NCBI GenBank assembly: GCA_048270185.1
Contig: JBLWTJ010000001.1
Span: forward strand, 736,001-800,000
Length of the DNA: 64,000 bases
Reading direction: 5' to 3'
Source of the DNA: Bacteriovoracaceae bacterium
GTDB taxonomy: Bacteria > Bdellovibrionota > Bacteriovoracia > Bacteriovoracales > Bacteriovoracaceae
In this document: positions 1 through 37,913 of the stretch, piece after piece
Layout of the letters: the number at the start of each line of letters is the position of its first letter
Numbering within the stretch: position 1 is the first letter of the stretch
Made by a program: the position numbers and the translations under genes
The notes under the pieces: generated by a model
What the model was told of the DNA's origin: nothing
What the model saw: only the letters and a program-made list of their open reading frames with translations
Databases searched by the model: none

Positions 1-2862
1 CATGGCCTGATCCAGGTGTTCTCTAAACTTCTTCACGACATAATCACTATTATGCCAAGGAAGAAGAGAATCCTGAACTGACTTGATAGCAAGATCCAAG
101 TAATCCTTCGATTTTACCTCAAGATTACGATACTTATATTCAAACTTCTCTGTTCCAAGACTTGCTAATTCACGTCCAAGTTTAAAGGCCGCGAGATTAT
201 TTTCAATTTCTGCAGACTTCATTGAGTTCTTTAGCGCTTCTAAAAGATCATCTTCACCAAATGGTACAAGACCAAGTTGATAAGCATACCCTAGAATCAT
301 AGAAGATGCGTAAACAGCTTTTCCAAAGAAGAGGTTACACCATTTTTTAAGTGGGACTAGAACAACTCTTTCATCATTCTTGGCCTTAAGTTTTTCAAGT
401 AATTTTGAACGAGTTAAACTCTCTTCGCTCTCGCCCTTATCTAACATTATCGAGAGAGGTACTTGATATGAGTCATCAAAGATTGCAATGGCATCTTTGC
501 CTCTTAGAAAACCAAGTTGTCCAATACCATCAAGAAGATCAGGACTTAGAAGAACATCAGCACCACCACGCGGAGTAACCGCACCCATGGACTTATCTTT
601 ATGACAGATCGACATATGCCCGGTAACATTTCCATTTCTTTGAGCAAGACCTTTTTGATCCATGAACTTAAAGTCAAGATCATCACGGCCGGCCATTTTA
701 ACACAGGCATTCGCGATAATTTTTGAAATCGTTGTAATCCCTGAACCACCTACACCTGTCACCACCATACGCCAAGTATTCCCATCGGCAATCTCATCAA
801 ATGACTTACGAGACTTAACTGGAGTTAACTCATAATCAAGATCACCTAGATTTGAATCACGATACTTTGTTGGGTGATAACCCAAGACTTCAACTTTTTC
901 AAAGCTTGGACAGGCCTTAAGTTTTGTACAATAGCTATCGGCCACACAAATTGTTGGGTCGATGGCCATCTTTGTTCCGTAAGCATCAAAGACTTGAGTA
1001 AGTCCAGGGCATCCTGTCTCCTCAATACAAACTCGGCAGTCTTCACAGGCCGATGTATTAATTTGATAGAAGGTTTTTGCTTTAACGGCTCCATCATTTT
1101 TAAGAAGTTGTCTCTCACTTGCACGAACTTTTGCTTGATATGTAAGAGAGCACTCTTTATTGGAGATAATAACTTTTACGCCCTTCTCTTTAATAAAGTC
1201 GCGCATAAGATTCTTATAAAAGTAGCGATCACTTGGATTGACTTCCTTGGCAACTTTTACACCAAGGTTTTGCACGATATTTAGCATATCTTGCTTTGGC
1301 CTCTTACTCCCTTCGACATTGATCTTTGAAGCAGGAGTCATCTGATGTCCCGTCATGGCAGTGTTATCATTATCGAGGAGTATATAAGTAATATCGTGGT
1401 CAGCTTGAACTGAGTTTGAAATATCAGTAAGGCCAGAGTGAAAGAAAGTTGAATCACCCATTAGTACCACTGACGGATTCTTCGTAAAGAGATCCATCCC
1501 AGCACCAAGTGCTCCTCCTTGTCCCATGGCCGAAAGGTTGTGCATTTCTCCAAATGGTGGAAGAAATGATAGAGAATAACAACCAACGTCTCCGTGGCTG
1601 ATAAGATCGATTCCTTGTCCTTTAAGCCAACGTCTTAAATCTTTTAACAGAGATAATGTTTCACGGTGTGGACAACCGGGACAAAAAGTTGGCAGACGCT
1701 TTGGAAGAATTTCTCCGAAATTTCTTTCTTCAAAAGACATTGACTGACATTGCCCAAGCTCTAAGAAGTCTTTTAAGGCCGAAAGTTTTTCGTTGATGAT
1801 CTCATAACTTAGGCCACCAAAGGCAGGAAAGCCTTCGGCTTCATCTTTAAATTCTTTCCCAACGATATCAAGACTTAACCCATGCTTTTGGCAAAGGGCC
1901 CTAATCTCACCTTCTAAGAAGCCACGCTTTTCTTCAACTACAACGAGTTTTTTTAAGCCTTTTAGGTAAGGCAGAATTAAATCATCAACTAGTGGAAATG
2001 AACTTGCGACTTTATATAATGAAAAGTGATCAAGGTAAGCACCCTCTTCAAGACATTGTTTAAGTGTTTCAAAAATCACACCACTTGATATAAAACCAAT
2101 TTCAGCATCGAGGCGTCCAAAAGTCTTGTCTAGCTTCATCTCATTTAAAACTTGTTTCACTTTTGGGAAACGTTCTTTAATCATTGAGATATCAGCAAAT
2201 AAAGAGTTCGGTGGAACCATAACGTTCTTTTGAAGATCAAAAGTTGCAGGATCGATATCAATCAATTCACCATCAATCTTAGCTTCGTCAAAGCACTCAA
2301 CTCGCCCTCCACCTTCTGCAAGGAAAGTCGAAAGAAGAAGCCCTTGATAGAGACTTGTCTTACTTGAAACCTCTTTTGCTACAGCGATCCAGTCTTTTAA
2401 CTCTTTAGGATTTGAAGGTTCAAGAAATGACATATGTAAATGTTTAAATAAATATCTTGAGTCAGCGGCCGTAGAAGTTGACATTGACCATGGGTCATCA
2501 CCAACACATACGACTGTTGCAGGATAAATCTCACGGCCATCAACCATTTGAGGTTTAGCAGGGTTTGCAAAGTTACCAACACTTAGTGCATCACTGGCCA
2601 CATGCAGTCCCATAGATTTCATGGCAACAATACAATCACGTCCAGCTTGCTTTACACCACTTGCCATGGCAGCAGCATTAGCTTCTGAGTTAGCAATCAC
2701 AACACGAATACCTTTCTCGTGTAATTCATTTTTCTTGCGGTATAAAATATTGAAGTAATCTGCAAGTGGTGATCCCGGATAACCTGTATATAAGTTAAAT
2801 CCTGCTTCAAGAGCACCTTGAATGATTAGCTCATTCCCGTTGAGAATTTGATATTGTCCCAT
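1..2862 (-). CDS. ior: Fused alpha/beta indolepyruvate (arylpyruvate):ferredoxin oxidoreductase; 3' end runs off the window
   Basis: Absent from the ORF track because it has no stop in the window. Manual translation from ATG 2862 (SD GAGGA): MGQYQILNGNELIIQGALEAGFNLYTGYPGSP; also PTFCPGCPHRE, TPP motif MGDSTFFHSG...DNDNTAMTGHQ, ferredoxin motifs CEDCRVCIEETGCP and CVADSYC...CPSF, then beta-type VTGVGGSG. Confidence 0.9.
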   Translation of the reverse strand, partial: MGQYQILNGNELIIQGALEAGFNLYTGYPGSPLADYFNILYRKKNELHEKGIRVVIANSEANAAAMASGVKQAGRDCIVAMKSMGLHVASDALSVGNFANPAKPQMVDGREIYPATVVCVGDDPWSMSTSTAADSRYLFKHLHMSFLEPSNPKELKDWIAVAKEVSSKTSLYQGLLLSTFLAEGGGRVECFDEAKIDGELIDIDPATFDLQKNVMVPPNSLFADISMIKERFPKVKQVLNEMKLDKTFGRLDAEIGFISSGVIFETLKQCLEEGAYLDHFSLYKVASSFPLVDDLILPYLKGLKKLVVVEEKRGFLEGEIRALCQKHGLSLDIVGKEFKDEAEGFPAFGGLSYEIINEKLSALKDFLELGQCQSMSFEERNFGEILPKRLPTFCPGCPHRETLSLLKDLRRWLKGQGIDLISHGDVGCYSLSFLPPFGEMHNLSAMGQGGALGAGMDLFTKNPSVVLMGDSTFFHSGLTDISNSVQADHDITYILLDNDNTAMTGHQMTPASKINVEGSKRPKQDMLNIVQNLGVKVAKEVNPSDRYFYKNLMRDFIKEKGVKVIISNKECSLTYQAKVRASERQLLKNDGAVKAKTFYQINTSACEDCRVCIEETGCPGLTQVFDAYGTKMAIDPTICVADSYCTKLKACPSFEKVEVLGYHPTKYRDSNLGDLDYELTPVKSRKSFDEIADGNTWRMVVTGVGGSGITTISKIIANACVKMAGRDDLDFKFMDQKGLAQRNGNVTGHMSICHKDKSMGAVTPRGGADVLLSPDLLDGIGQLGFLRGKDAIAIFDDSYQVPLSIMLDKGESEESLTRSKLLEKLKAKNDERVVLVPLKKWCNLFFGKAVYASSMILGYAYQLGLVPFGEDDLLEALKNSMKSAEIENNLAAFKLGRELASLGTEKFEYKYRNLEVKSKDYLDLAIKSVQDSLLPWHNSDYVVKKFREHLDQAM

Positions 2863-2933
2863 ATTTCCTCTAAATGTTATTGAGAAGTGAGTATAGTGGT
2901 ATAATCATGTTTTTTGACGAACCAAAGCGTCAT

Positions 2934-3440
2934 TTATTCAAATGAAAAATTGATTACCTTACTTAAAATTGTCGGTACTTTTTGAGGCCTAAATCTCCAA
3001 TGCTTTGCCGAAGCTAATACGACTTCATTAAATGCATCAAAACTTGCAGCTTCCAGTAATTTAACATTCGTTACTAGTCCATTAGTATCAATGCTTAATT
3101 CGACGACAACTCTACCAGTGGCACCGATACGTCTAGCAGACCTAGGATAAACAGGGGCCTTAAACTCTAAGATCTGATTATCAAAAGTCTTTGCCGTTAA
3201 AACTTCTTGCTGAAAGTCCTGTTTCTTATCAACATGATTGATTTCTTTCTTAGCCATATTTTGTTGAGTTTCTTCTATTTCATTTTTTGTATCTTGTTTC
3301 TTGCGCGCTTTGATTTGGATATCAATTCCTATAGGTGCAGGACGGACTTCAGAGCGACCTTTCTTTATATTTGAAAAGAAGATAACAGCATGAGTCACAA
3401 GACTGATGGCAAAAAAGAAGAACCAGAGGCGATGTTTCAT
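2934..3440 (-). CDS. tonB: TonB-family energy transducer
   Basis: N-terminal TM with SLVTH motif; C-terminal PVYPRSARRIGATGRVVVELSIDTNG...WRFRP. Start moved to ATG 3440 (track start 3506). Confidence 0.85.
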   Translation of the reverse strand: MKHRLWFFFFAISLVTHAVIFFSNIKKGRSEVRPAPIGIDIQIKARKKQDTKNEIEETQQNMAKKEINHVDKKQDFQQEVLTAKTFDNQILEFKAPVYPRSARRIGATGRVVVELSIDTNGLVTNVKLLEAASFDAFNEVVLASAKHWRFRPQKVPTILSKVINFSFE

Positions 3441-3530
3441 ACACTTATCATAATGCAACTTGCTCCATTTGTGAAAAATCGTTAGTATCTGCTCACCTAA
3501 AATCAAAATTAATTTACTAAGGAAGTTTTT

Positions 3531-4604
3531 ATGAGCTCAAAAATTTCTCCAGAAAACCCATTAGGGGTACTGGCCATCGACCACCTAGAATTCACTTGTG
3601 ACACACTAGAAACTGCCACAAAAGACCTATTCTACACATTTGGATTTGCAAAAAGTTATGAACTAAAAGAAGACAAGAGAGAACTCTTTTCTCAGGGTCA
3701 GGTTCGTTTTCTACTAACAGCAAAAGAAGATGGTCACTCAAGACAATATTTTAAAGATCACGGTGAAGGTGTCTCAACAATTTCATTCTTAGTTGAAGAT
3801 TGTGAGCATGCTTATAAGACAGCTCTTGAAAGAGGGGCCGAGTCACTACAAGAAGTTATTGTAACAGAGAATGAACACGGTATTTACAAGTCTGCTCGAA
3901 TCAAAGGCTTTGGCGATGTTGCCAATGAGTTTATTGAAAGACCTCGCGCATTCTTTAGACCTGGTTATACAAAACTTGAAGAAGATCCAAAGGCACGCCC
4001 ACTATCTTCTCGTGTTGCACGTATTGACCATTTAACAAATAATGTTCCAAAAGGTGAAATGAAGAAATGGGTTGAGTTCTATGACCGCGTTTATGGGTTT
4101 AAAGTAACTCGCTACTTCGATATTAAAGGATCAAAAACGGGACTTAACTCAGAAGTTGTACAACTTCCAAAAGGTGAAGTTATCATTCCTATTAATGAAC
4201 CAAAAGAAGCTGGTGGAAAAGACCAAATTCAAGAATTCCTCGATCGTCATAACGGCGCTGGAGTTCAGCATATCGCCCTTACTTGTGGAGATATTCTCTC
4301 AACTGTAAAAGATCTAAGAGAGCGTGATATTAAGTTCCTCGACATTCCTCATTCATACTATGAAGGAATTTCAAGTCGTGGAATTAATGTTACAGAAAGC
4401 CTTGAAGATCTTGAAGATCGCCAACTTCTTGTTGATGGCGATGAGGAAGGCTACCTTATCCAAAATTTCACTGACACTTATGTTGGTCCACTATTTTTTG
4501 AATTTATTCAAAGAAAGAACCACAACGGGTTCGGAGAAGGAAATTTCCAGGCCCTCTTTGATGCGATTGAGCGCGATCAGATGGCCAGAGGTTACCTGGA
4601 CTAA
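3531..4604 (+). CDS. hppD: 4-hydroxyphenylpyruvate dioxygenase
   Basis: IDHLTNNV, QIQEFL, GVQHIAL, FFEFIQRK and GFGEGNFQALFDAIERDQ motifs. Confidence 0.96.
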   Translation: MSSKISPENPLGVLAIDHLEFTCDTLETATKDLFYTFGFAKSYELKEDKRELFSQGQVRFLLTAKEDGHSRQYFKDHGEGVSTISFLVEDCEHAYKTALERGAESLQEVIVTENEHGIYKSARIKGFGDVANEFIERPRAFFRPGYTKLEEDPKARPLSSRVARIDHLTNNVPKGEMKKWVEFYDRVYGFKVTRYFDIKGSKTGLNSEVVQLPKGEVIIPINEPKEAGGKDQIQEFLDRHNGAGVQHIALTCGDILSTVKDLRERDIKFLDIPHSYYEGISSRGINVTESLEDLEDRQLLVDGDEEGYLIQNFTDTYVGPLFFEFIQRKNHNGFGEGNFQALFDAIERDQMARGYLD

Positions 4605-4607
4605 TTC

Positions 4608-4976
4608 CTAATTAAAGCAATTAGAAATGCTTTGTTTCACGAGACTTTCGTTAGACTTTGAAGCAAAGCATTTCTTATTAACCTCTACATCCTTCCAACC
4701 TTCGTATGCGCGATCACGAATCTTACTAACTACTGCAACAAATTCTTCTAAAACTTCATAGTCAGTTTTATCGCCACAATCAAAAGCGAAGTTTGTACAA
4801 ATTACATCTCTTGTCACCACAATATTCTCATGCTCAACACCTAGAACAACATAGGCATCATGGAATGGTTTAAAAGAGTCAATAATATGAAGACTAATAT
4901 CTCTTGGAGCTGTACATGCAGCGAAAATCGATTTCGTCATCATTACAACAATCATTAGTCTGATTAATTTTTTCAT
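4608..4976 (-). CDS. Hypothetical secreted Cys-containing protein
   Basis: Signal-peptide-like MKKLIRLMIVVMMTKSIFA from ATG 4976 with GAGGA upstream. Confidence 0.6.
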   Translation of the reverse strand: MKKLIRLMIVVMMTKSIFAACTAPRDISLHIIDSFKPFHDAYVVLGVEHENIVVTRDVICTNFAFDCGDKTDYEVLEEFVAVVSKIRDRAYEGWKDVEVNKKCFASKSNESLVKQSISNCFN

Positions 4977-5233
4977 TTCTTCCTCGTTATTTTTAAGTTG
5001 CGGCAATATACATGGAAACGAGTGCGCAATGCGTAAAAATGAATAAATTTCAGCCTAGGCCCAATAAAGGCCATATTAGATATTAGTCTTAACTTATATC
5101 TAAAAATTAACGATCTAAACGGTTGAAAATACGTCAAAAAATGACTCGATAAGCCTATTCAAAGGGCCTGTCCTTTCCCTACAATATTGCTTTAATTAAC
5201 TAAAATTTAAACACAACACAACAAAGGACTCTT

Positions 5234-5545
5234 ATGTATAAGTTAATCGCCATTTATAAAATTCCAAATGACATTGATGCTTGGGAAAAGCACTACTCTG
5301 AAGTCCATACTCCACTAGTTAAAAAGGTTCCAAGCCTAAAAGAAATTCGTCTAAACCGCATCACGGGAACTCCAAGAGGAGCAAGCGATCTACACGTTAT
5401 TGCAGAACTAGTTTTCTCAAATAAAGACGACTTCAAGCTTGGCATGAGTTCTGAAGAAAATATGGCCTGCGGAAAAGATCTCTTTAACTTTGCAAAGGAA
5501 ATCGTATCTGTTCATTTTGCAAAAGAAGAAGTCATTTCACTATAA
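5234..5545 (+). CDS. EthD-family (dimeric alpha+beta barrel) protein, first gene of the paa-like operon
   Basis: MYKLIAIY...HYSEVHTPLVKKVPSL...IAELVF pattern; SD AAGGA. Confidence 0.85.
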   Translation: MYKLIAIYKIPNDIDAWEKHYSEVHTPLVKKVPSLKEIRLNRITGTPRGASDLHVIAELVFSNKDDFKLGMSSEENMACGKDLFNFAKEIVSVHFAKEEVISL

Positions 5546-5556
5546 AGGCCACATTA

Positions 5557-6336
5557 ATGAAGAATATACTTTGTGAATTCCCATATAACGACCACAAGCA
5601 TATTGCACTTGTGAAACTAAACCGTCCGAAGGTTCTAAATGCTCTCTCAACAGATCTTATGAAAGAATTAGTTGAGACTCTTTTCGAGCTAGACGATAAC
5701 CCGGAAGTTCGTGTCATCATACTAACTGGTGATGATCGTGCCTTTGCGGCCGGTGCTGATATTGCCCAAATGGTTGAGGCCACGCCAATCGACCAGATCA
5801 ATGATAATCGCTTCCGTTCATGGCAACAGCTTTCTCAAATTACAAAGCCAATGATTGCGGCCGTTAACGGTTACGCACTTGGAGGCGGATGTGAGCTAGC
5901 GATGCATTGTGATTTTATTATCGCAGGCGATAGCGCTAAATTTGGGCAACCTGAAATTAGTATTGGAACTACGCCAGGAGCAGGTGGAACTCAACGCCTA
6001 ACTCGTGCCATTGGAAAATCAAAGGCCATGATGCTTTGTATGACGGGTGAAATGTTTGGAGCCCAACAAGCACAGAGCTGGGGACTTGTTGCAAAGGTTG
6101 TCCCAAGTACAACCCTACTTCAAGAAACTTTTGAAGTTGCAAAAGAGATTGCTAATAGGGCCCCTGTCGCCATCAAGTTAATTAAAGAATCAGTGAATAA
6201 AGCATTTGAAATGTCACTATCCGACGGTGTTGATTTTGAAAGACGCAATTTCTATTTAACATTTGCAAGTAGCGACCAAAAAGAAGGCATGCGTGCTTTC
6301 TTAGAGAAGCGCTCACCAGAGTATAAAGGAAATTAA
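5557..6336 (+). CDS. paaF: Enoyl-CoA hydratase (PaaF-like 2,3-dehydroadipyl-CoA hydratase)
   Basis: LNRPKVLNAL, AFAAGADI, NGYALGGGCELA, FGQPE...PGAGGTQRL; operon context. Confidence 0.85.
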   Translation: MKNILCEFPYNDHKHIALVKLNRPKVLNALSTDLMKELVETLFELDDNPEVRVIILTGDDRAFAAGADIAQMVEATPIDQINDNRFRSWQQLSQITKPMIAAVNGYALGGGCELAMHCDFIIAGDSAKFGQPEISIGTTPGAGGTQRLTRAIGKSKAMMLCMTGEMFGAQQAQSWGLVAKVVPSTTLLQETFEVAKEIANRAPVAIKLIKESVNKAFEMSLSDGVDFERRNFYLTFASSDQKEGMRAFLEKRSPEYKGN

Positions 6337-6337
6337 G

Positions 6338-7129
6338 ATGTCTAACGAATTTAGAAATATCATAGTTGAAAAAGAAGCCTTCACAGGTGTGATAACAATT
6401 AACCGCGCTGAAGTTTACGGTGCCTTAACACGTGAAGCGAAGTTTGAAATCATCAAGGCCTTAAGAGACCTTAACCGCGACAATGAAGTGGGCTGTATTA
6501 TCCTAGCTTCAAACGGAAAAGGATTTTGTACAGGACAAGATTTAAATGATCGCACAGTACAAGCTGGAGATAAGCCCGTTGATCTAGGAGTGACGCTAGC
6601 AACAGAGTGGAATCCATTAGTTAATGCCATCAAAGAATCAAAGAAATTAGTTATTGGAGCAGTTGAAGGTGTTGTGGCAGGAGCTGGTGTTTCAGTTGCT
6701 CTTGCTTGTGACCTTGTGATTGCAAAACCTGGTATTAAATTTGTTTCAGGTTTTTCTAAACTTGGTCTTTGCCCTGATGCTGGTTCAACTTTTACTTTCA
6801 CAAGGGCACTTGGAGAGAAGAAGGCCATGGAATTTTTCATCCTTGGCAATCCACTAACAAGTGAAGAAATGGAAGGTGCTGGTCTAATTAATAAAGTAAG
6901 TGAAGAAGCATTAGCTGATGCTAAGGCATGGGCCGCCCAGATTAATGCCATGGCACCACTTGCCGTTAAGGCCATCAAAGAAAATATTCAAGTTGCTGTT
7001 GATTCAACGGCAAAGCAATCAATGGATCGCGAAACTGCATACCAGAGATTCTTAGGAAATAGTGATGATTATAAAGAAGGACTAAGTGCCTTCTTTGAAA
7101 AGAGACAAGCAAAATTTTTAGGAAAATAA
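6338..7129 (+). CDS. paaG: Crotonase-family isomerase (PaaG-like epoxyphenylacetyl-CoA isomerase)
   Basis: GFCTGQDL, VAGAGVSVALACD, GLCPDAG with the PaaG-type Asp; context. Confidence 0.8.
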   Translation: MSNEFRNIIVEKEAFTGVITINRAEVYGALTREAKFEIIKALRDLNRDNEVGCIILASNGKGFCTGQDLNDRTVQAGDKPVDLGVTLATEWNPLVNAIKESKKLVIGAVEGVVAGAGVSVALACDLVIAKPGIKFVSGFSKLGLCPDAGSTFTFTRALGEKKAMEFFILGNPLTSEEMEGAGLINKVSEEALADAKAWAAQINAMAPLAVKAIKENIQVAVDSTAKQSMDRETAYQRFLGNSDDYKEGLSAFFEKRQAKFLGK

Positions 7130-7140
7130 AAGGAGGCCAT

Positions 7141-7950
7141 ATGGCAGCAAGAGAATACACTCAAGAAGAACTACAATTATTTGACGACATCGCAAACGGT
7201 AAGAAGTTTGATAAAGGTGATGAGCTTCCTCCTCTATACAAGAAAGCTCTAAAGAACCTTCTTTGGATGCAACACGATTCAGAATACTCAGGTGCACTTG
7301 GATATGCACCTTGGATTGAAAAAGCACCAACGATGCAAGAGAAAGTTGTTGTTGCACAAATTGTAAAAGATGAAATGAGACACGCTTCAGTTTGTTACCG
7401 ACTACTTAAGGGAATTGGTGAAGATGTTGACTCACATATTGAATCAAGTGAACTTGGTTTTAAAATGCCAGAAGATAAAGCACAAATTGGATTCCAAAGA
7501 CTAAAAGAAGATTACCGAGTGAATATCTTCTATTACGGAATTAACTACTGGGAAGATTTCATTCTCTTTAACTTTCTAATGGATAGAGCTGCTGGCCACC
7601 AATTAGAAGATACTCTTGATTCAAGCTACCTACCATGGAAGAAAGGAATCGAAGGTATCTATAAAGAAGAAATTATGCACCTTGCTCACGGAGATAAGTG
7701 GATCAAGATCTTAGCAGATGGTGAAAACAAAGAATTCCTTCAGGAAAGACTTGAGCTATGGTGGCCAAGAGTAATGAACGTTTTTGGATCAACAAAAGGT
7801 CGCTCGAATGATCTTTATGTAAAGCTTGGCCTAAAGAAACGTAACAACCAAGTTGTTCGTGATGTTTTCGTAAAAGAAGTACAAGAGATGTGCGATAAAG
7901 CAGGTCTTGTTCTTCCAGAGTATGACGAAGACGCACAACCAAAAAGGTAA
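7141..7950 (+). CDS. paaA: PaaA-like ferritin-fold diiron phenylacetyl-CoA epoxidase subunit
   Basis: DSE, KDEMRH, MDRAA and KEEIMH diiron ligand set; WIEKAPT and WWPRVMNVFG resemble PaaA. Confidence 0.8.
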   Translation: MAAREYTQEELQLFDDIANGKKFDKGDELPPLYKKALKNLLWMQHDSEYSGALGYAPWIEKAPTMQEKVVVAQIVKDEMRHASVCYRLLKGIGEDVDSHIESSELGFKMPEDKAQIGFQRLKEDYRVNIFYYGINYWEDFILFNFLMDRAAGHQLEDTLDSSYLPWKKGIEGIYKEEIMHLAHGDKWIKILADGENKEFLQERLELWWPRVMNVFGSTKGRSNDLYVKLGLKKRNNQVVRDVFVKEVQEMCDKAGLVLPEYDEDAQPKR

Positions 7951-7958
7951 TTAATTAA

Positions 7959-8822
7959 ATGAATATAAAAAGTGTACTAGTCATCGGTGCGGGAACCATG
8001 GGGCGAGGAATCGCTCAATGGTTCTCACAACACGGTGTTAGAGTTGAGCTTGTTGATCAACATCTTGAAATGGCCCAGGCCAGTGGTGATCTGATTTATA
8101 GCTCTTGGGATAAATTAGCGAGTAAGGGAAAATTTGATGCGCAAGAGATTGCGGCTTTCAAAAAGAACTTAAATATCGTCGAGATGGAAAAACATCAAAT
8201 TGATCACGACCTCGTGATTGAGGCCATTGTTGAAAATCTTGAAATTAAGAAGAAAGTCTTTGCTCGTCTTGATGAGATAATGAGCAAGGAGACAATCCTA
8301 AGTTCAAACACTTCTTCAATCCCGATTACAAAGATGGCAAAAGATCTTTCAAAAGATCGTCGTGAAAGCTTTCTTGGACTGCACTTCTTTAATCCAGCAA
8401 CAATTATGAAGCTTGTTGAGATTATTGAAACACCATGGAGTAAGAAAGAGACGGCCCATGCACTTTATGATTGGTTTGAGCGCTTTGGAAAGAAGCCGGC
8501 CCTTTGTAAGGACTCTCCTGGTTTTATCGTTAACCGCGTGGCCAGAAATTACTACGGTGAATCTTTGCACCGCCTAGAAAATTATAATCATGAACAAATT
8601 TCAGAAATCGATCGTGTCATGACAAATGTTGGTGGATTTCGCATGGGACCATTTGAATTAATGGACCTTATTGGAATTGACGTCAACTACGATGTGACTC
8701 AATCAGTTTGGAATGCTTACTATAATGAGCCACGCTTTAGACCTCACAAGATTCAACGAGAAATGGTTGATAGCGGTCGTATTGGCCGCAAAGTAAAAGA
8801 GGGGTTCTACCGTTATGAATAA
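7959..8822 (+). CDS. paaH: 3-hydroxyacyl-CoA dehydrogenase (PaaH-like, N-terminal part)
   Basis: GAGTMGRGIA, IEAIVE, SNTSS, GLHFFNPA, PGFIVNR, FRMGPFELMDLIGIDV. Confidence 0.88.
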   Translation: MNIKSVLVIGAGTMGRGIAQWFSQHGVRVELVDQHLEMAQASGDLIYSSWDKLASKGKFDAQEIAAFKKNLNIVEMEKHQIDHDLVIEAIVENLEIKKKVFARLDEIMSKETILSSNTSSIPITKMAKDLSKDRRESFLGLHFFNPATIMKLVEIIETPWSKKETAHALYDWFERFGKKPALCKDSPGFIVNRVARNYYGESLHRLENYNHEQISEIDRVMTNVGGFRMGPFELMDLIGIDVNYDVTQSVWNAYYNEPRFRPHKIQREMVDSGRIGRKVKEGFYRYE

Positions 8823-9474
8823 GACAATCTTAATTAGTGAAAACCATCCTCTTTTAAAAAACGTTCAAGGTAGTGACTTCCCTTCTATTGTTGTTGATCC
8901 ATTTAGCATCAATACTCTTGATGGAGTGGACTTTGATGAAACTGATCTATTAATTGATCTAACTTCATTTGATCGCAACTCAAAGATGGATCTTTATGAG
9001 CATCTTGATCAAGTCTATGAGGGGCCAATTGTTTCAGACCTTTCAATTAACTGGGGTGAATACCTAGTCTCACAATATGAAAATGTTGTTGGTGCCGTAG
9101 CAGCTGCCTTCTACTCACCAAAGAGTTGTTTTGAACTCTACTTAAAAGACGACACTTTTGAGCAAGCAATTTTTGAGGTCTTTAAGAAACTAGGTTTTGA
9201 TCTTGAATTAGTTGAGCACGTTGGCATTGGATTTACTTACCCACGTGTAATTTCTCAAATTATTAATGAAGCGTACTTTGCTAAAGAAGAAAAACTAGCA
9301 AGTAATGCTGATATTGATAAGGCCATGATGTTTGGGGTGAACTATCCTTTAGGTCCATTTGAATGGGCGCAAAAAATCGGCCTTGAAAAAATCATTATGC
9401 TTCTTGAAGAACTTCGAGAAGTAACAGGAGATGCACGTTACCGTCCATCTCGCCTACTAAGGATGAATTTATGA
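8815..9474 (+). CDS. 3-hydroxyacyl-CoA dehydrogenase C-terminal-domain protein (second half of PaaH)
   Basis: RVISQIINEA...DIDKAMMFGVNYPLGPFEW...RYRPSRLL; 8-nt overlap with the upstream gene. Confidence 0.8.
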   Translation: MNKTILISENHPLLKNVQGSDFPSIVVDPFSINTLDGVDFDETDLLIDLTSFDRNSKMDLYEHLDQVYEGPIVSDLSINWGEYLVSQYENVVGAVAAAFYSPKSCFELYLKDDTFEQAIFEVFKKLGFDLELVEHVGIGFTYPRVISQIINEAYFAKEEKLASNADIDKAMMFGVNYPLGPFEWAQKIGLEKIIMLLEELREVTGDARYRPSRLLRMNL

Positions 9475-10682
9475 GCTTAACTTTTAAAGATGCCTATATT
9501 GTTTATGCTAAGAGAACACCAATTGGTAAATTAGGTGGTTCAATGTCTCACCTTCGCGTCGATGACATGATGGCAACTCTTCTGCGCGACTTCTCTCAAA
9601 ACTTTGACTTTGATATGAAAGAAATCGACGATGTGATTGTTGGTTGCGCCAATCAGGCCGGAGAAGATAACAGAAACCTTGCCCGTATGGCGGCCTTATT
9701 AGCAGGTCTTCCATACGAAGTCCCAGGGGTTACACTTAACCGCCTCTGTGCTTCTTCACTAGATGCCATTATCGATGGTTGGTCACGAATCAACTTAGGA
9801 GTCGCCGATTGTCTTTTAATCGGTGGAGCAGAGAGTATGACTCGCGCGCCACTGGTTATTTCAAAAGGCTCAACTCCATTTGGCCGTGACTCACAAATGT
9901 TTGATACGACTTTTGGTTGGCGTTTTCCAAATAAGAAGATGGAAGAAATGTTTCCACTTCTTGGTATGGGACAAACGGCAGAAGAAGTTGTGACTAAACT
10001 TGGTATCTCTCGTGAAGACCAAGATCAATTCGCACTTAACTCTCACCTTAAGTCATGTGCGGCATGGGAGAAGGGAGAATTTAATGACGAGGTTCTACCG
10101 GTTGAAATTAAACTTAGAAAAGAAACCCTAAATATCACACGTGATGAAGGGCCACGTGCTAACTCAAGCCTAGAAGCTCTTAGTGGACTTCGCCCTGTCT
10201 TTAAAAAAGACGGAAGTGTGACAGCAGGTAACTCATCAATGATGAATGATGGAGCCGCTTGCGTTGCTCTTGTTAGTGAAGACTTCTTAAAGCGTCATAA
10301 CCTAACTCCTCTAGTAAAGCTTACAGGAGCTGGTGTGCGCGGAATTCACCCAAGTATTATGGGACTTGGTCCAGTTGAATCGACAAAGAGACTCATGGAG
10401 AAATTTGGTAAGAAGATCACAGATTTTGATGTGGTTGAACTTAACGAGGCCTTCGCTTCTCAGTCCCTTGGTTGTATGCGTGAGCTTGGAATTGATGATT
10501 CAAAAGTAAATCTTAGAGGTGGCGCCATCTCTCTTGGTCACCCTCTTGGTGGTTCAGGAGCAAGAATTGTGACGACTCTGACTCATATTATGAAAGATAA
10601 TGCCAACCTTAAGCAAGGTCTTGCTTCAATGTGTGTTGGTGTTGGTCAAGGTGTCTCACTTTCAGTAGAAAATTGTAAATAG
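9471..10682 (+). CDS. paaJ: Beta-ketoadipyl-CoA thiolase (PaaJ/PcaF-like)
   Basis: GCANQAGEDNRN, NRLCASS, GWRFPN, NEAFA, GHPLG, SMCVGVGQG. Confidence 0.88.
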   Translation: MSLTFKDAYIVYAKRTPIGKLGGSMSHLRVDDMMATLLRDFSQNFDFDMKEIDDVIVGCANQAGEDNRNLARMAALLAGLPYEVPGVTLNRLCASSLDAIIDGWSRINLGVADCLLIGGAESMTRAPLVISKGSTPFGRDSQMFDTTFGWRFPNKKMEEMFPLLGMGQTAEEVVTKLGISREDQDQFALNSHLKSCAAWEKGEFNDEVLPVEIKLRKETLNITRDEGPRANSSLEALSGLRPVFKKDGSVTAGNSSMMNDGAACVALVSEDFLKRHNLTPLVKLTGAGVRGIHPSIMGLGPVESTKRLMEKFGKKITDFDVVELNEAFASQSLGCMRELGIDDSKVNLRGGAISLGHPLGGSGARIVTTLTHIMKDNANLKQGLASMCVGVGQGVSLSVENCK

Positions 10683-10691
10683 GAGAATAAA

Positions 10692-12182
10692 ATGGAAGAA
10701 ATTAAATTATACATAAACGGAGAAATCCGCCCTTCTTCAACTGGTGAAATGGTTGATTCAATCGACCCATCTAATGGGGAGCTAGTTGCCAAGGTTCATA
10801 TTCCAAGTGAAGCGGATCTTGAAGAAGCGGTACAAGCGGCCAAGTCTGCTTTCTATAGTAAAGAGTGGCGTGATTTCACACCGGCCAAACGCTCAGAGAT
10901 CTTACTAAAAATTTCGGAGCTTCTTAAAGAAAGAAAGCGCGACTTCATCACACAAGAAATTAAAGATAGTGGCTCAACTTTTAGAAAAGCAGCTGCTGAT
11001 ATTCACAACTCAATTAGCTTCTTTAAAGTAATGAGTAAGGTAACGGCTAAATTTAATTTTGAAGCCGTTGATGAAGCTGCAACACGTGCAGGCTTTTCAA
11101 AGAATACTCGTCGTTATGAACCAGTTGGTGTTTGTGCTCAAATTATCCCATGGAACCTACCTCTTCAGATGGCAGCATGGAAGATCGGGCCGATTCTTGC
11201 AACGGGTTGTACAACAGTTCTAAAATCTGCTGTAGAAACTCCTGTGACAGCAATGATGCTTGCTCAAGTCTTAATCGATGCTGGAGTACCTAAGGGTGTT
11301 GTTAATATCGTAACAGGTGGAGCAAAAGAAGGGGCCTACCTTGTTAATCACAAGGATATTTCAAAAGTGGCCTTCACTGGATCAACGGCCGTTGGGCGTG
11401 AGATTCAAAAGCAATCTTCTCAAACTCTAAAGAATACAACAATGGAGCTTGGTGGAAAATCTGCCAATATCATCCTAGATGATGCTGATCTTGATATCGC
11501 TGTTGATGGATCACTCTTTGCCTTCCTTTATCACTCAGGTCAAGCTTGTACATCGGGTACTCGCCTACTTGTTCAAGAAGGAATCTATGATGAGTTTATG
11601 ACAAAATTCAAAGAGCGTATTGCTCAGGTTCCACTAGGGCCTACGGCCGAGAAGACAACAGGACTTGGGCCAGTTGTTAGTGAGAAGCAATTTAATACTG
11701 TTATGAATTATATCAATAAAACGAAAGAAGAAGGTGCAACTCTTATCGCAGGTGGTGAAAGAGCGACAGATAATGGACTTGATAAGGGATTCTACGTAAA
11801 GCCTACGGCCTTTGAAATCACGCCTGATAATACAATTTGGCATGAAGAAATCTTCGGCCCGGTTGTTGGGATCACAAAGTTTAAAACTGAAGAAGATGCC
11901 ATTGCCATGGCCAATAATTCAATCTACGGACTAGCAGGAGCTGTTTGGTCAAAGAATGAAGAACGCGCCCTAAATCTTGCTAAAGATATTGAAGCTGGAA
12001 CTGTGTGGATTAACGAATACCACCTACTAAACCCAGGAATGCCTTTTGGTGGTTTCAAGCAATCAGGAATTGGACGTGAAATGGGTGAAGAAGGAATCAA
12101 GGCCTACCTTGAAGTGAAACACCTATGGGAATCAGACTGCAATACTCGTGAAGGGAAAATGTGGTTTGATGCTATTTTCTAA
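10692..12182 (+). CDS. Stand-alone NAD(P)-dependent aldehyde dehydrogenase
   Basis: IPWN, FTGST, MELGGKS, GQAC, EEIFGPV, PFGGFKQSG; no MaoC domain. Confidence 0.92.
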   Translation: MEEIKLYINGEIRPSSTGEMVDSIDPSNGELVAKVHIPSEADLEEAVQAAKSAFYSKEWRDFTPAKRSEILLKISELLKERKRDFITQEIKDSGSTFRKAAADIHNSISFFKVMSKVTAKFNFEAVDEAATRAGFSKNTRRYEPVGVCAQIIPWNLPLQMAAWKIGPILATGCTTVLKSAVETPVTAMMLAQVLIDAGVPKGVVNIVTGGAKEGAYLVNHKDISKVAFTGSTAVGREIQKQSSQTLKNTTMELGGKSANIILDDADLDIAVDGSLFAFLYHSGQACTSGTRLLVQEGIYDEFMTKFKERIAQVPLGPTAEKTTGLGPVVSEKQFNTVMNYINKTKEEGATLIAGGERATDNGLDKGFYVKPTAFEITPDNTIWHEEIFGPVVGITKFKTEEDAIAMANNSIYGLAGAVWSKNEERALNLAKDIEAGTVWINEYHLLNPGMPFGGFKQSGIGREMGEEGIKAYLEVKHLWESDCNTREGKMWFDAIF

Positions 12183-12196
12183 AAACTAAGTAAAAG

Positions 12197-12228
12197 AAAA
12201 GCCTTCGAAAGAAGGCTTTTTTATTTTT
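12197..12228. terminator. Probable bidirectional intrinsic terminator
   Basis: AAAAGCCTTC-GAAA-GAAGGCTTTT with A and T tracts between convergent genes. Confidence 0.85.
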
Positions 12229-13422
12229 CTAGAATTTCTTATAAAGAACATTTAATGCGACATTGCCGTAATCATCGTAGATCGTAAATGTACGGCCCTG
12301 GTTCGTTGTCCCAAATTTAACTTCAACAAATGTATCACTACAATTAATCGCTGAAGTTCCGTAGTAGAACTCATATGTCGGGCGAATGCTTGGAGTGAAT
12401 TTACAGATTTTAATAATTGGGCGGCCGTAGTAATTGAACTCATACTCAAGAGCGTAGAATTCACGGTATTGATAGCTTCCGTCATTAAGTGCTGATAAGC
12501 GAGAAAAGACGTGCGAAATATTGCGACTTGAAGAAAATCTAAAGAGCCCGCTTAACTCTTGGCTGAAGTCTGAAGTCCCAGGCCTAAAAACTGGAGTATC
12601 ACAGTAACTGGTTTCATCATACGAGATATTGTGCATATTAAATTTCTTAAGTGCACATTTAATTGGTGTTGCAAGTGTTAGCGTTGAACCCTTGCGGCCA
12701 CGCATGAAACGACGGAAAGTAATATCCTCTGTAATCTCATCGTGAACAAGCCCTAGAACATCCCCACTAATTGAATCAACCACCACTGCACCATGGGAGA
12801 TATTTCTGATATTACAATTTGTCATAGCAACAACTGATGCATCGTCGTTATTTGTTGGAAATAAGATATTATTACGAGTACGACGACAATTGTAGCGCGT
12901 ATGCTCAAGAGTATAACCCGTGTTATCGTGCTTTTTGGCGACATACCAAAGGCGGTAGTAATTATACTCAGTCATTCTTGCATCAGAGATTGGAGCAAAA
13001 TCTCCATCAATCCCATCTTCTAATTCAACAACTGAGAACTCACCATTATAAGCTTCGGCAGCACGACTATCACTTTCCAATTGCTTGATATTGGCGCACT
13101 TAACAACCTTACCACCTACAGTCTTCGCAGCAATAGTAGAACAAGTAGCCGCTTCAAGACAATTTGACGGCACAACCATCTCAGTCGAGCTGGCCATATA
13201 TCCCGTACAATACTTAGGAAAGTCACCAGCACTATTAATGGCAAGGACAAATGAATTTGTACACTCAGCTTCATCCGCACAATCAAATTTGACATTCGTC
13301 GATGTCTCTAACTTTGATACAATTCTCTTGATTGGACCTGAAGCATTATCTCCTTCAGGGGCACCACAAGAAATCATCAAAGCAGAAAAAAGAATGAGTG
13401 TTGTTATTCTTGCTAAAAGCAA
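12229..13422 (-). CDS. Lipoprotein with a degenerate trypsin-like protease domain
   Basis: Lipobox LMISC; CTGYMASSTEMVVPSNC aligns with the trypsin His motif and NISHGAVVVD...VLGLVH with the Ser motif; TTG start with AGGAG SD. Confidence 0.6.
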   Translation of the reverse strand: MLLARITTLILFSALMISCGAPEGDNASGPIKRIVSKLETSTNVKFDCADEAECTNSFVLAINSAGDFPKYCTGYMASSTEMVVPSNCLEAATCSTIAAKTVGGKVVKCANIKQLESDSRAAEAYNGEFSVVELEDGIDGDFAPISDARMTEYNYYRLWYVAKKHDNTGYTLEHTRYNCRRTRNNILFPTNNDDASVVAMTNCNIRNISHGAVVVDSISGDVLGLVHDEITEDITFRRFMRGRKGSTLTLATPIKCALKKFNMHNISYDETSYCDTPVFRPGTSDFSQELSGLFRFSSSRNISHVFSRLSALNDGSYQYREFYALEYEFNYYGRPIIKICKFTPSIRPTYEFYYGTSAINCSDTFVEVKFGTTNQGRTFTIYDDYGNVALNVLYKKF

Positions 13423-14078: not shown

Positions 14079-14423
14079 ATGAACCCATTAGAGACAAAGA
14101 AATTTCAAGCACGAAACCTGCAAGGTCGTATGAAACACTTAAGCAATCAACTTGAATACCTAAAAACCCACCCTGAAGAATGGCCAACATTTAAAGATAT
14201 AATGAATATGAAATTTGACCACCTCATCAGTGACTCCATTGGACTTGGAAGTATTGAAGCGGCCAATTACCTGGCCCTACTTCAAAATCAACTAAATAAG
14301 GACTTTAATATGGATGTCATTTCCATCGTTAAGGATCAATTTGATGAAGTTCTTGAAGCGCTGGATAGCCTTGGAGTTGAATTACTTATCAATGATTTTG
14401 ATACGCCAGAATTTGCGCATTAA
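14079..14423 (+). CDS. Hypothetical protein
   Basis: 114-aa ORF with AAGGAG SD, followed by a terminator. Confidence 0.7.
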   Translation: MNPLETKKFQARNLQGRMKHLSNQLEYLKTHPEEWPTFKDIMNMKFDHLISDSIGLGSIEAANYLALLQNQLNKDFNMDVISIVKDQFDEVLEALDSLGVELLINDFDTPEFAH

Positions 14424-35970: not shown

Positions 35971-36002
35971 ACTTTTACTAAAAATTTAACAGGTAGAAAT
36001 TG

Positions 36003-36614
36003 ATGTTTTATCAACAACTTAGGCCATATCTTTCGAACACTAGCGTCAAAAAGCTTAAATTAAAGCGTGGTCAAATTATCTACCATCAAGGCGATGACCC
36101 CAAGGAATTATTCCTCGTGGATAGTGGTGTTATTGGCCTCTTTCATATTTCAGAAAACGGAAAGGAAACCTTTCTGCGTGTCTTTAATAAAGACTGTATT
36201 TTTGGCCATCGTTCATTTTTTGCCGAAAGTCCATATCACGCAACTTCCATTGCCCTGACAGAATGCGAGATCAGCGTCATTTCAAAAGATGCCTGTGATG
36301 AAATCTGTGCAAAGGAGCCAGGCCTTTTAAAGATGCTCACAAAATCAATTGCCAAGAACCTTGCAGATGCCGAGCTAAGACTTGCCGGCCTGCTTGATAA
36401 GTCGGCCAATCAGAGGATTGTAGAGTCTCTTATTTTCTTCAAACTAAAGTATCCAGAAAAAGTTTGGACGCGAAAAGAGATCGCCGACTTTTGCGGCAGT
36501 ACTTACGAGACTGTCACAAGAGTTATGACTGAGCTAAATGAAAACGGCCTCATTAGAAAACAAGGCCGTGACTTTGATATTTTAAATATTGAAGCTTTAC
36601 TAAAGTACTATTAA
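36003..36614 (+). CDS. Crp/Fnr family transcriptional regulator
   Basis: IYHQGD...SENGKE effector domain; C-terminal HTH TRKEIADFCGSTYETVTRV. Confidence 0.92.
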   Translation: MFYQQLRPYLSNTSVKKLKLKRGQIIYHQGDDPKELFLVDSGVIGLFHISENGKETFLRVFNKDCIFGHRSFFAESPYHATSIALTECEISVISKDACDEICAKEPGLLKMLTKSIAKNLADAELRLAGLLDKSANQRIVESLIFFKLKYPEKVWTRKEIADFCGSTYETVTRVMTELNENGLIRKQGRDFDILNIEALLKYY

Positions 36615-37771
36615 ATTGCTTCTTGTGGCCCAAAAAATTCAATATTAATTGAAGATTCTGCAACACCTAATTCTATTAGGTGTTTTTTCATGGCTTGCAT
36701 GAATGCTTTAGGCCCACAAATGTAGATTTCACTGTTATCTTTTAATAAATCAGAAAGAAACGATTTCTCGATACGTCCTCTGTACTCATTGGCCAAGAGG
36801 ATCTCATCACTATTTTCATAGAAATAATTAATTTCAATATTTTCATTATTCTCTGATAAATTATTAAGTTCATTTTTAAATGCCACTTCATTCTTAGATT
36901 TTGTAGCATAAACAAATTTAGCATTCGTTTCTGGATTGATGGCATTTAGCATACTTAATAATGGAGTGATTCCAATACCACCGGCCAAGAAAAGACAATT
37001 TTGAGACATGCCTTTATAAGTGAATACACCTGATGGTGCAGCAAGTTCAACTTCATCTCCAACGCTAATTTGGTCATGAAGAAAATTCGATACATGGCCA
37101 TTTGGTTTACCTAATGCGCGTTTAACGCTAATACGTAAGAAATTTGAATCGCCAAAATTTGAAAGGCTATAATTACGCATTGTCGTACTATTCTCAAGAG
37201 GGACTCTCACAGTTGTAAATTGACCTGCATTAAATTTTGGAATTATCGATCCATCTATAGGAACTAAATGAAAGGACTTAATCAATTCATTCTCGTCAAC
37301 GATATTAGTAACTTTAAATTTTTTAAATCCTTTATATGCTTGTTCTTCATAGATTTTCTTTTCTGCATCAATAAAGATATCAGCAAGGAAAAAATATGCA
37401 TCTTTCCAAGCATTAATAATTTCATCAGTAGCCGTATCACCAAGAACATCTTTAATAGCACCAAGTAAATTTACGCCTACTATAGGGTAATGCTCTGGCA
37501 TTACCTTTAAAGAAGCATGCTTATGTGTAATTAATTCAACGGCCTCACCAAGCGCACCGAGGTTATCAATATTCATAGCATAGGCGCAAATCGCTCCAGC
37601 AAGGGCCTCTTGTTGTGAACCTTTAGCCTGATTTGCAAGATTGAAGTATGGAAGAACTTCCGGATTATTTTCGAACATTTTCTTATAGAAATGCTTAGTT
37701 AAAACTACTCCATTCTCCTGTAAGACAGGTGCAGTGGACTTAATGATATTAATCGTATCTTGAGACAACAT
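36611..37771 (-). CDS. hmp: Flavohemoglobin (NO dioxygenase)
   Basis: Globin MLSQDTINIIKSTAP...KHASL...HYPIVG; RNYSLS; AGGIGITP; CGP; EFFGP. ATG 37771 with AAGGAG SD. Confidence 0.96.
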   Translation of the reverse strand: MLSQDTINIIKSTAPVLQENGVVLTKHFYKKMFENNPEVLPYFNLANQAKGSQQEALAGAICAYAMNIDNLGALGEAVELITHKHASLKVMPEHYPIVGVNLLGAIKDVLGDTATDEIINAWKDAYFFLADIFIDAEKKIYEEQAYKGFKKFKVTNIVDENELIKSFHLVPIDGSIIPKFNAGQFTTVRVPLENSTTMRNYSLSNFGDSNFLRISVKRALGKPNGHVSNFLHDQISVGDEVELAAPSGVFTYKGMSQNCLFLAGGIGITPLLSMLNAINPETNAKFVYATKSKNEVAFKNELNNLSENNENIEINYFYENSDEILLANEYRGRIEKSFLSDLLKDNSEIYICGPKAFMQAMKKHLIELGVAESSINIEFFGPQEAI

Positions 37772-37789
37772 AGAGAACTCCTTAGTCAA

Positions 37790-37812
37790 AACATGTATTT
37801 AAAATACATATT
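37790..37812. promoter_or_regulatory. NsrR operator
   Basis: AACATGTATTT-A-AAATACATATT, an 11-1-11 inverted repeat matching the NsrR consensus; weaker second site at 37843-37865. Confidence 0.85.
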
Positions 37813-37913
37813 TAAGTTTCTTTCAAATATTCGTCAACCTTAAATATGTATTTTATATATGTATTTATAGTTTTTTAAACAAATCCAGCCAGATATATGA
37901 TATTAATAATTTC

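Follow-up and report, generated by a model that had tools for sequence, protein, structure and literature searches.

A stand-alone PaaA-like protein of Bacteriovoracaceae as a candidate phenylacetyl-CoA ring oxygenase without PaaB, PaaC and PaaE

Among aerobic routes for aromatic compounds the phenylacetate pathway holds a central place, and its ring activation has been described as needing the subunits PaaA, PaaB, PaaC and PaaE. Can a PaaA-type protein attack the ring when these partners are not encoded in the genome? This question is raised by a locus at the beginning of the stretch analysed here (the window), 64,000 nucleotides from a Bacteriovoracaceae bacterium (assembly GCA_048270185.1, contig JBLWTJ010000001.1, positions 736,001 to 800,000), where the gene for a stand-alone PaaA-like protein of 269 aa lies in an operon of phenylacetate-type genes. 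We propose, with moderate confidence, that this protein acts as a phenylacetyl-CoA ring oxygenase independent of PaaB, PaaC and PaaE, and that the locus serves the catabolism of aromatic amino acids. The stripped-down design is not confined to this organism, as it recurs across several bacterial phyla.

The PaaA-like protein matched the family PF05138 with 113.4 bits (gathering cut-off 28.5), and scored 55 bits with the PaaC model and 18.5 bits with the BoxB model TIGR03225 (cut-off 499.1). Its AlphaFold2 model (pLDDT 96.8) found its best fold matches in PaaA (TMq 0.78-0.80), followed by the Sulfolobus structure 4MUD (0.73) and PaaC (0.67-0.69), with weaker matches to BoxB (0.62-0.66) and aldehyde-deformylating oxygenase (0.53-0.60). 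All ligand motifs expected of a diiron centre were present (D46-S47-E48, D77-E78-M79-R80-H81, M147-D148 and E176-E177-I178-M179-H180). From the letters alone, an earlier note on this DNA had read just one PaaA-type subunit of the ferritin-like kind and had found its ligand set complete; both parts of that reading were borne out. Judged by its sequence, the protein is a PaaA-type ferritin-fold protein and not a canonical PaaA.

Residues were mapped in a 65-sequence alignment (A3), in which the clade of the protein comprised 37 members (29 from Bacteriovoracaceae and 8 from other phyla) next to 8 canonical PaaA sequences. The six diiron ligands E48, E78, H81, D148, E177 and H180 were kept in all 37 clade members; those of E. 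coli PaaA are given as E42, E72, H75, D126, E155 and H158 in excerpts of PMC4498308. F130, the equivalent of PaaA Phe108, was likewise kept in 37/37 clade members and in 8/8 canonical sequences. According to the same excerpts, Phe108 orients the phenylacetyl group over the diiron site (PMC4498308). Together, the intact ligands, the ring-orienting phenylalanine and a constant PaaG-type neighbour (see below) suggest that the protein catalyses a PaaA-like epoxidation.

A search of 1.84 billion cluster representatives returned 555 matches to the PaaA-like protein at E <= 1e-3. When 117 full-length representatives were scanned, about a dozen reached or came near the PaaA cut-off, and the rest were short PaaA-like forms with approximately 45-130 bits. 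In a quick maximum-likelihood tree of 99 rows (without PaaC or BoxB rows, and from which 22 partial or fused representatives had been removed first), the family of the query formed a clade of its own (SH-aLRT 100) that grouped loosely (88) with other short forms. Two representatives of the short type, P0126 and P0131, were distinct sister rows, each from a 4836-bp ENA contig; the two may be paralogues from a single contig and thus a heterodimeric version of the short type. A further representative, P0184 (379 aa), carries a PaaB-like stretch (59.2 bits, cut-off 85.45) behind its canonical PaaA part (316.9 bits), both in one polypeptide.

Are the partner subunits encoded elsewhere? Profile searches covered the whole of the window's own genome, which is 95.9% complete. 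PF05138 was represented by one gene, leaving no second copy to serve as PaaC, and neither PaaB (PF06243) nor PaaD was detected. The best scores for the remaining components stayed far below the respective cut-offs: 26.7 bits for PaaK (cut-off 646), 97.5 for PaaE (420.8) and 40 for BoxA (459.2), and the search for PaaZ returned only plain aldehyde dehydrogenases (ALDHs) of at most 122 bits (562.8). The absence of paaB, paaC, paaD, paaE, paaK and paaZ, claimed earlier for the operon, hence extends to the genome-wide searches. A paaBCDE set or a paaK gene elsewhere in the genome or just left of the window had been named as what would overturn the idea; both places were searched, and the 12 kb to the left held no paa genes either. 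The best PaaE match (window 36611-37789) proved to be a flavohaemoglobin (globin-FAD-NAD) encoded next to an Rrf2 regulator and was rejected as a reductase subunit. Its surroundings (window 36000-38351), with a Crp-family regulator, the flavohaemoglobin and the Rrf2-family regulator, look like a nitric-oxide detoxification unit.

The same picture was obtained for the family as a whole. In a genus-balanced sample of 71 Bacteriovoracaceae genomes, PF05138 was found over the cut-off in 27, as a single copy in 26 of these, and PaaB in none of the 71; PaaB was also missing from all five genomes of other phyla that were searched. Among 301 genomes of the phylum Bdellovibrionota, the PaaA-like protein was matched in 45, namely the window's own genome and 44 of the 67 other family genomes, with no match outside Bacteriovoracaceae.

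The genes around the PaaA-like gene indicate what it may work on. The features of the locus are as follows.

1..2862, minus strand: fused IOR-family 2-oxoacid:ferredoxin oxidoreductase (Pfam TPP_enzyme_C and POR), the first 954 of 1143 aa, with the remainder left of the window
3531..4604, plus strand: 4-hydroxyphenylpyruvate dioxygenase, HPPD (TIGR01263, 361.1 bits, cut-off 277)
5234..5545, plus strand: EthD-family small protein, first gene of the operon (PF07110, 33.4 bits; TIGR02118, 77.1 bits, cut-off 30.5)
5557..6336, plus strand: crotonase-type enoyl-CoA hydratase, putatively in the PaaF role (ECH_1, 283 bits; PaaF model 307.7 bits, cut-off 371)
6338..7129, plus strand: PaaG-like enoyl-CoA isomerase (best NCBIfam match TIGR02280 PaaG, 207.7 bits, cut-off 345.15)
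7141..7950, plus strand: stand-alone PaaA-like ferritin-fold diiron protein, 269 aa (PF05138, 113.4 bits)
7959..8822, plus strand: 3-hydroxyacyl-CoA dehydrogenase, N-terminal piece of a split PaaH type (3HCDH_N and 3HCDH)
8815..9474, plus strand: second piece of the split PaaH, the extra 3HCDH C-domain alone (PRK08268 model positions 390-494)
9471..10682, plus strand: 3-oxoadipyl-CoA-type thiolase, PaaJ/PcaF-like (PRK09050, 492 bits, cut-off 605; TIGR02430, 485.5 bits, cut-off 597)
10692..12182, plus strand: NAD(P)-dependent ALDH, putatively for the semialdehyde step (Aldedh, 543.7 bits; under every equivalog cut-off)
12195..12222, plus strand: intrinsic terminator-like hairpin that can serve either strand (stem of 12 pairs, loop of 4 nt and T-run, 13 nt past the ALDH stop)

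The plus-strand operon (5234-12182) is tight, with genes that overlap or are separated by 1-12 nt, and runs from EthD through the crotonase, the PaaG-like enoyl-CoA hydratase (ECH), the PaaA-like gene, the two open reading frames (ORFs) of the split PaaH and the thiolase to the ALDH. Its ORFs and families, and the terminator that closes it, were as the earlier note had described them. The PaaG-like protein falls under the PaaG equivalog cut-off, yet PaaG is its top-scoring family and E. coli PaaG (4fzw_C) its closest solved relative (181 bits; runner-up 150). For the crotonase, mitochondrial crotonases were the closest solved relatives (274 bits), ahead of E. coli PaaF (227). The dehydrogenase piece matched PRK08268 with 366 bits over model positions 6-288 of 507, and the PaaH model TIGR02279 with 303.5 bits.

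How constant is this arrangement within the family? We fetched approximately 16 kb around the PaaA-like gene from 20 genomes of approximately 17 genera and compared these loci with the window proteins; the counts refer to genes inside the stretch fetched. A PaaG-like ECH lay directly upstream of the PaaA-like gene in all 20 loci, and an IOR orthologue within approximately 9 kb in all 20. The dehydrogenase was present in 19/20, HPPD beside the module in 17/20 (in several directly abutting the next gene of the operon), the thiolase in 17/20, the crotonase in 15/20 and EthD in 11/20. The C-domain ORF was separate in 19/20 loci, indicating that the split of PaaH is real and not a sequencing frameshift. 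Across the 71 family genomes, an IOR orthologue (>=53% identity) was found in 35, including 27/27 of those with the PaaA-like gene. As these genomes are kin, the co-occurrence counts are not independent.

To look beyond the family, one genome per prokaryote species was scanned with a close five-sequence alignment (A2), since an alignment of 11 diverse sequences (A1) held no sufficiently conserved stretch. The scan yielded at least 331 confirmed relatives, and the best 80 were kept for locus comparison; all counts of loci from other phyla given below refer to these 80. The orthologues were 45-56% identical to the window protein and came from Elusimicrobiota, Rokubacteria/Methylomirabilota, Melainabacteria/Vampirovibrionales, Cyanobacteria, Acidobacteria, Verrucomicrobia, Chloroflexota and others. 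In high-GC loci the simple ORF caller gave long antisense ORFs (without Pfam match, and ignored), so that neighbour counts there are lower bounds. ECH and/or 3-hydroxyacyl-CoA dehydrogenase (3HCDH) genes lay beside the orthologue in 46 loci and an ALDH gene in 35, usually in the order ALDH-ECH-ECH-PaaA-like-3HCDH. Melainabacterial and cyanobacterial loci add EthD (5 loci), a split dehydrogenase and a thiolase, in an order nearly that of the window. In the three loci scanned for the ECH directly upstream, PaaG was the best family each time, with 343.5 (Melainabacteria), 317.8 and 260.1 bits (cut-off 345). Melainabacterial and cyanobacterial operons also contain a third ECH (L083:6875-7744, L106:7385-8248) with no counterpart in the window; the best families of the L083 protein are MenB-type (195-199 bits, below cut-off), making it a candidate ring-opening hydrolase.

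The source of the acyl-CoA substrate appears to change with the lineage. Neither IOR nor HPPD was found within 10 kb of the gene in any locus of other phyla. Elusimicrobiota instead carry genes of a 2-oxoacid dehydrogenase complex (E1-beta, E2, E3 and lipoate ligase) near the module in 7-9 loci and an aminotransferase in 5, which is probably a second ligase-free way from a 2-oxoacid to an acyl-CoA. Of the other 34 loci, at least 9 (Rokubacteria/Methylomirabilota and similar) have a PaaK-like ligase gene directly upstream; three of the nine were scanned and gave 506-552 bits with the PaaK model (cut-off 646), the next family reaching at most 197. Thus, the CoA ester would be supplied by IOR in Bacteriovoracaceae, probably by the dehydrogenase complex in Elusimicrobiota and by a ligase in Rokubacteria. 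Three independent kinds of neighbourhood, the paa module with its PaaG-type isomerase, the PaaK-like ligase, and IOR with HPPD, all point to phenylacetyl-CoA, or else to a very similar aryl-acetyl-CoA, as the probable substrate.

Four whole genomes of other phyla that bear the module had one PF05138 match each and neither PaaB, an IOR-type gene nor PaaE over the cut-off (IOR best 32-39 bits, cut-off 650.9), and a Rokubacteria genome had four PF05138 matches. In Elusimicrobiota, a conserved ORF of 74-89 aa without Pfam match follows just after the dehydrogenase gene of the module (L067:11872-12141, L073:11851-12087 and 13 other loci). Most of the six members inspected have a C-x-G-C motif, and an 'AAYHAVPD'-like stretch is conserved; the ORF might encode a small redox partner.

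From these data a route can be outlined for the Bacteriovoracaceae. Gene content, the missing partner subunits, the kept ligands and fold and the synteny between phyla are observed, and the substrate, the reaction, the oligomeric state and the electron donor are inferred from them. Phenylalanine would be transaminated to phenylpyruvate, which the fused IOR-family enzyme would convert to phenylacetyl-CoA by oxidative decarboxylation; since the CoA ester would thereby be made directly, a PaaK ligase would not be needed. The PaaA-like diiron protein would then use O2 to attack the ring, with a 1,2-epoxidation like that of PaaA as the most likely reaction, in the absence of PaaB, PaaC and a dedicated PaaE-type reductase. 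The PaaG-like isomerase would turn the epoxide into the oxepin-CoA, one of the two crotonase-family enzymes would open the ring, the ALDH would oxidise the resulting semialdehyde, and the thiolase, the crotonase and the split PaaH would complete the part that resembles beta-oxidation. The two electrons for the oxygenase would probably come from the general ferredoxin/flavodoxin pool, which IOR may reduce in Bacteriovoracaceae. As no gene is common to all contexts, a housekeeping ferredoxin/flavodoxin system would be the simplest source.

Tyrosine would be handled by the HPPD of the locus. Phenylalanine hydroxylase was not found in 7/7 genomes of the genus, so that phenylalanine would need a route other than conversion to tyrosine. 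On contig 2 of the genome (L147, G000:C2:606801-610673), an operon encodes a class I/II aminotransferase, an FAA-hydrolase-family protein, a divergent HgmA-like protein and a PF01613 flavin reductase. The HgmA-like protein scores 62.8 bits (cut-off 510), and an equally weak match occurs in 7/7 genomes of the genus. This operon probably supplies the remainder of tyrosine catabolism after HPPD, and its flavin reductase is a possible electron source.

The role of IOR deserves separate attention, as the earlier interpretation had tentatively given it two tasks, replacing the ligase and replacing the reductase. A fused IOR-family gene and an HPPD gene do lie upstream of the operon as described, and the ferredoxin motifs said to be built into IOR are partly canonical: it has one CxxCxxCx5CP motif (C606-C618) and a three-Cys Cx5Cx5CP motif (C639-C651). 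The idea of IOR as a ligase substitute holds by association, through its presence in 20/20 loci and 27/27 positive genomes and through a precedent in Phaeobacter, whose Ior1, according to excerpts of PMC5577590, makes phenylacetyl-CoA from phenylpyruvate and bypasses PaaK. That IOR supplies the CoA ester in Bacteriovoracaceae is likewise indicated by association only.

The second task is a rival explanation in its own right. If IOR doubled as the reductase, phenylpyruvate, CoA and O2 would be converted to epoxyphenylacetyl-CoA, CO2 and H2O with no need for NAD(P)H, the electrons passing via a ferredoxin-like domain or free ferredoxin. The stoichiometry would match, no reductase of the PaaE or BoxA type was found in the genome, IOR is as constant a companion as stated above, its Cys motifs for Fe-S clusters are kept, and the PaaA-like protein lacks the lysine bridge that faces PaaE in canonical PaaA (see below). 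However, the locus contains no ferredoxin gene. The module occurs elsewhere without IOR, both in the 80 loci of other phyla (within 10 kb) and in 4/4 of the genomes searched there; beside it Elusimicrobiota have an NAD-linked 2-oxoacid dehydrogenase complex, and Rokubacteria a ligase. These four genomes imply that IOR cannot be the general electron donor. Therefore, the solo oxygenase and the ligase substitution of the earlier interpretation survive, and IOR as the reductase falls as a general mechanism; we consider that explanation unlikely, with IOR-reduced ferredoxin remaining a possible donor in Bacteriovoracaceae. A bolder version, in which a single-polypeptide-type aryl-acetyl-CoA epoxidase closes a redox loop in Bacteriovoracaceae by re-oxidising the ferredoxin that IOR reduces while acting on IOR's own product, seems improbable to us. 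If true, it would activate the ring without ATP (no ligase) and without NAD(P)H (no reductase).

Directly downstream of IOR, with a 4-nt overlap with its stop, lies a gene for a 445-aa fusion of NUDIX and metallo-beta-lactamase domains (L013:10097-11434, minus strand), which follows IOR in at least 14/20 family loci. As both domain types include CoA/thioester enzymes, the fusion may handle the CoA esters made by IOR.

Several observations weigh against a PaaB/PaaC/PaaE-independent phenylacetyl-CoA oxygenase or against parts of the proposed route. The protein stays far under the cut-off of the PaaA equivalog TIGR02156 (97.6 bits, cut-off 280), and in the tree the 12 rows of canonical or near-cut-off PaaA group in a single clade (SH-aLRT 100) to which the query does not belong; substrate and chemistry may therefore differ from those of PaaA. 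E. coli PaaA alone is reported to be insoluble and to need PaaC for solubility, and PaaA, PaaB, PaaC and PaaE to be all required for activity (excerpts of PMC4498308). The same excerpts describe a lysine bridge near the diiron site of PaaA (K68-E49-E72-D126) that has been proposed for electron transfer from PaaE. At the position of K68 all 37 clade members have I or M, where 8/8 canonical sequences have K; at that of E49 all 37 have Y, where 6/8 canonical sequences have E. The loss of the bridge also fits the loss of PaaE. Taken by itself, the lack of a PaaE match over the cut-off is weak evidence, since not one of 14 control genomes reached that cut-off, even though three of them have PaaA and PaaB. 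No dedicated oxepin-CoA hydrolase was identified in the genome, the best 'oxepin_alt' scores (183-187 bits, cut-off 300) belonging to the two ECHs of the cluster.

The flanking enzymes add to these points. The ALDH was found in 8/20 family loci within the stretch fetched, and its nearest solved structures are generic ALDH/BADH enzymes. For IOR, the 954 aa inside the window scored 326.6 bits with PRK13030 (NF009589, cut-off 816) and 311.1 bits with IorA (TIGR03336, cut-off 650.9); as the protein lies under all IOR equivalog cut-offs, we only infer its arylpyruvate specificity. Eight of 44 family genomes negative for the PaaA-like gene nevertheless carry IOR, and genes of leucine catabolism 8-12 kb to the left suggest that IOR might serve other 2-oxoacids.

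Could the protein, then, act on another CoA thioester or by another chemistry? Candidate reactions are the hydroxylation of 4-hydroxyphenylacetyl-CoA or indoleacetyl-CoA, or an O2-dependent desaturation of a branched-chain acyl-CoA delivered by IOR, in which case the ECH, dehydrogenase and thiolase genes would perform ordinary beta-oxidation. IOR enzymes accept several arylpyruvates, the protein groups apart from canonical PaaA and scores far under the PaaA cut-off, and the operon has ECH, dehydrogenase and thiolase genes but no acyl-CoA dehydrogenase. The nearby leucine-catabolic genes, the 2-oxoacid dehydrogenase complex near the module in Elusimicrobiota and the generic ALDH would also agree. 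We nonetheless regard such a role as quite unlikely, given that in four phyla the neighbouring ECH resembles PaaG specifically, that the dehydrogenase has the extra C-domain of the PaaH type and the thiolase is of the 3-oxoadipyl-CoA type, that Rokubacteria orthologues directly follow PaaK-like ligases, and that the Phe108 equivalent is invariant in the clade. In addition, the ALDH is not of the methylmalonate-semialdehyde dehydrogenase (MMSDH) type (TIGR01722, 260 bits, cut-off 448, 25th in the list).

It is also conceivable that partners exist and were missed by homology, for example a non-homologous structural or effector subunit such as EthD, combined with a reductase encoded elsewhere, either the flavin reductase of the operon with the aminotransferase, FAA-hydrolase and HgmA-like genes or a housekeeping FNR/ferredoxin. 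EthD is the first gene of the operon, and it recurs in 11/20 family loci and in the five melainabacterial and cyanobacterial loci; the PF01613 flavin reductase lies in a tyrosine-pathway operon, and the dependence of E. coli PaaA on PaaC for solubility (excerpts of PMC4498308) would favour a partner. Against this, 9/20 family loci (within the stretch fetched) have no EthD, nor do those of Elusimicrobiota and Rokubacteria, no other gene is common to all three kinds of context, and the operon has no room for further ORFs. We consider missed partners very improbable. A role in valine/isoleucine catabolism, with the diiron protein replacing an acyl-CoA dehydrogenase, was ranked low, as the neighbours are of the PaaG, PaaH, PaaJ and PaaK types and the ALDH is not an MMSDH.

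A PaaA-type oxygenase acting without PaaB, PaaC and PaaE can be set beside several known systems. The PaaABC(D)E 1,2-epoxidase of E. coli, Klebsiella and Pseudomonas (PDB 3PVR, 3PW1, 4IIT) shares with the window protein the ferritin-like fold, the six ligands, the phenylalanine and PF05138, and its pathway shares PaaG-, PaaF-, PaaH- and PaaJ-like genes with the window. It differs in that PaaA is approximately 40 aa longer (311 aa in the solved chain), only 23-24% identical, and equipped with the lysine bridge and with PaaB/C/D/E. The best sequence match among solved structures was SSO1313 of Sulfolobus solfataricus (PDB 4MUD, E 1.6e-16), a short PaaA-like protein of 235 aa deposited by structural genomics as a 'ring oxidation complex / phenylacetic acid degradation-like protein', which is approximately 24% identical and keeps both ExxH motifs. 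We found no published function for SSO1313 in the literature. A Sulfolobus control genome had a PF05138 match and no PaaB match. In the tree, a 235-aa representative of SSO1313-like size, whose identity with SSO1313 is not confirmed, falls on the other side from the query.

Cyanobacterial aldehyde-deformylating oxygenase (ADO) is likewise a stand-alone ferritin-like diiron enzyme of approximately 230 aa with no dedicated reductase gene and a weak fold match to the window protein; it draws on the general ferredoxin/FNR pool. It differs in acting on fatty aldehydes by another chemistry, and is neither a CoA-ester enzyme nor a member of PF05138. BoxB resembles the window protein in having one catalytic diiron subunit that acts on an aryl-CoA without PaaB or PaaC, and excerpts of PMC4498308 state that the reductase in the BoxB/BoxA system binds only transiently. 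BoxB is, however, 470-480 aa long and only distantly related, and its partner BoxA was not found in the genome. The label 'BoxB-like' in the earlier note is apt only as an analogy of architecture and fails by sequence (18.5 bits with TIGR03225) and by fold (TM 0.62-0.66 against 0.78-0.80 for PaaA). As for the CoA-ester supply, Phaeobacter, an aerobic marine bacterium, likewise feeds its paa pathway through an IOR-type enzyme, with PaaK dispensable (excerpts of PMC5577590). It differs in keeping full PaaABCDE and PaaK, and its Ior1 is likened to the window IOR by description and not by sequence.

We found no prior description of a stand-alone PaaA-like clade in the literature, subscription-only papers lying outside the scope. 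A recent genomic survey, according to excerpts of PMC13186573, used PaaA and PaaC as markers and PaaK as anchor; surveys of that design would miss a clade that lacks PaaB, PaaC, PaaE and often PaaK. Should the 269-aa enzyme prove active by itself, no simpler aryl-CoA epoxidase would be known, and it would offer a convenient model for electron delivery to such diiron centres and a compact part for pathway engineering. The proposed route, if true, would also show how predatory bacteria dispose of phenylalanine from their prey.

The organism is a predatory marine bacterium, a Halobacteriovorax-like member of its family; the best matches of the window proteins were 86-93% identical to named Bacteriovorax/Halobacteriovorax records. 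Within window positions 1-12222, the minus strand also holds a TonB_C-like ORF. Four window ORFs had no Pfam or NCBIfam match (4608-5006 and 12229-13422 on the minus strand, 14079-14423 and 15562-18108 on the plus strand); window ORFs of 132 aa and 397 aa without family match were kept only in the closest genome examined (49-53% identity). The 12 kb left of the window contain the end of the IOR gene, the NUDIX-metallo-beta-lactamase fusion, two large unknown proteins and, 8-12 kb from the window (L013:2-3982), biotin carboxylase, ECH and carboxyltransferase genes of the methylcrotonyl-CoA carboxylase type known from leucine catabolism. The region is a neighbourhood of amino-acid catabolism.

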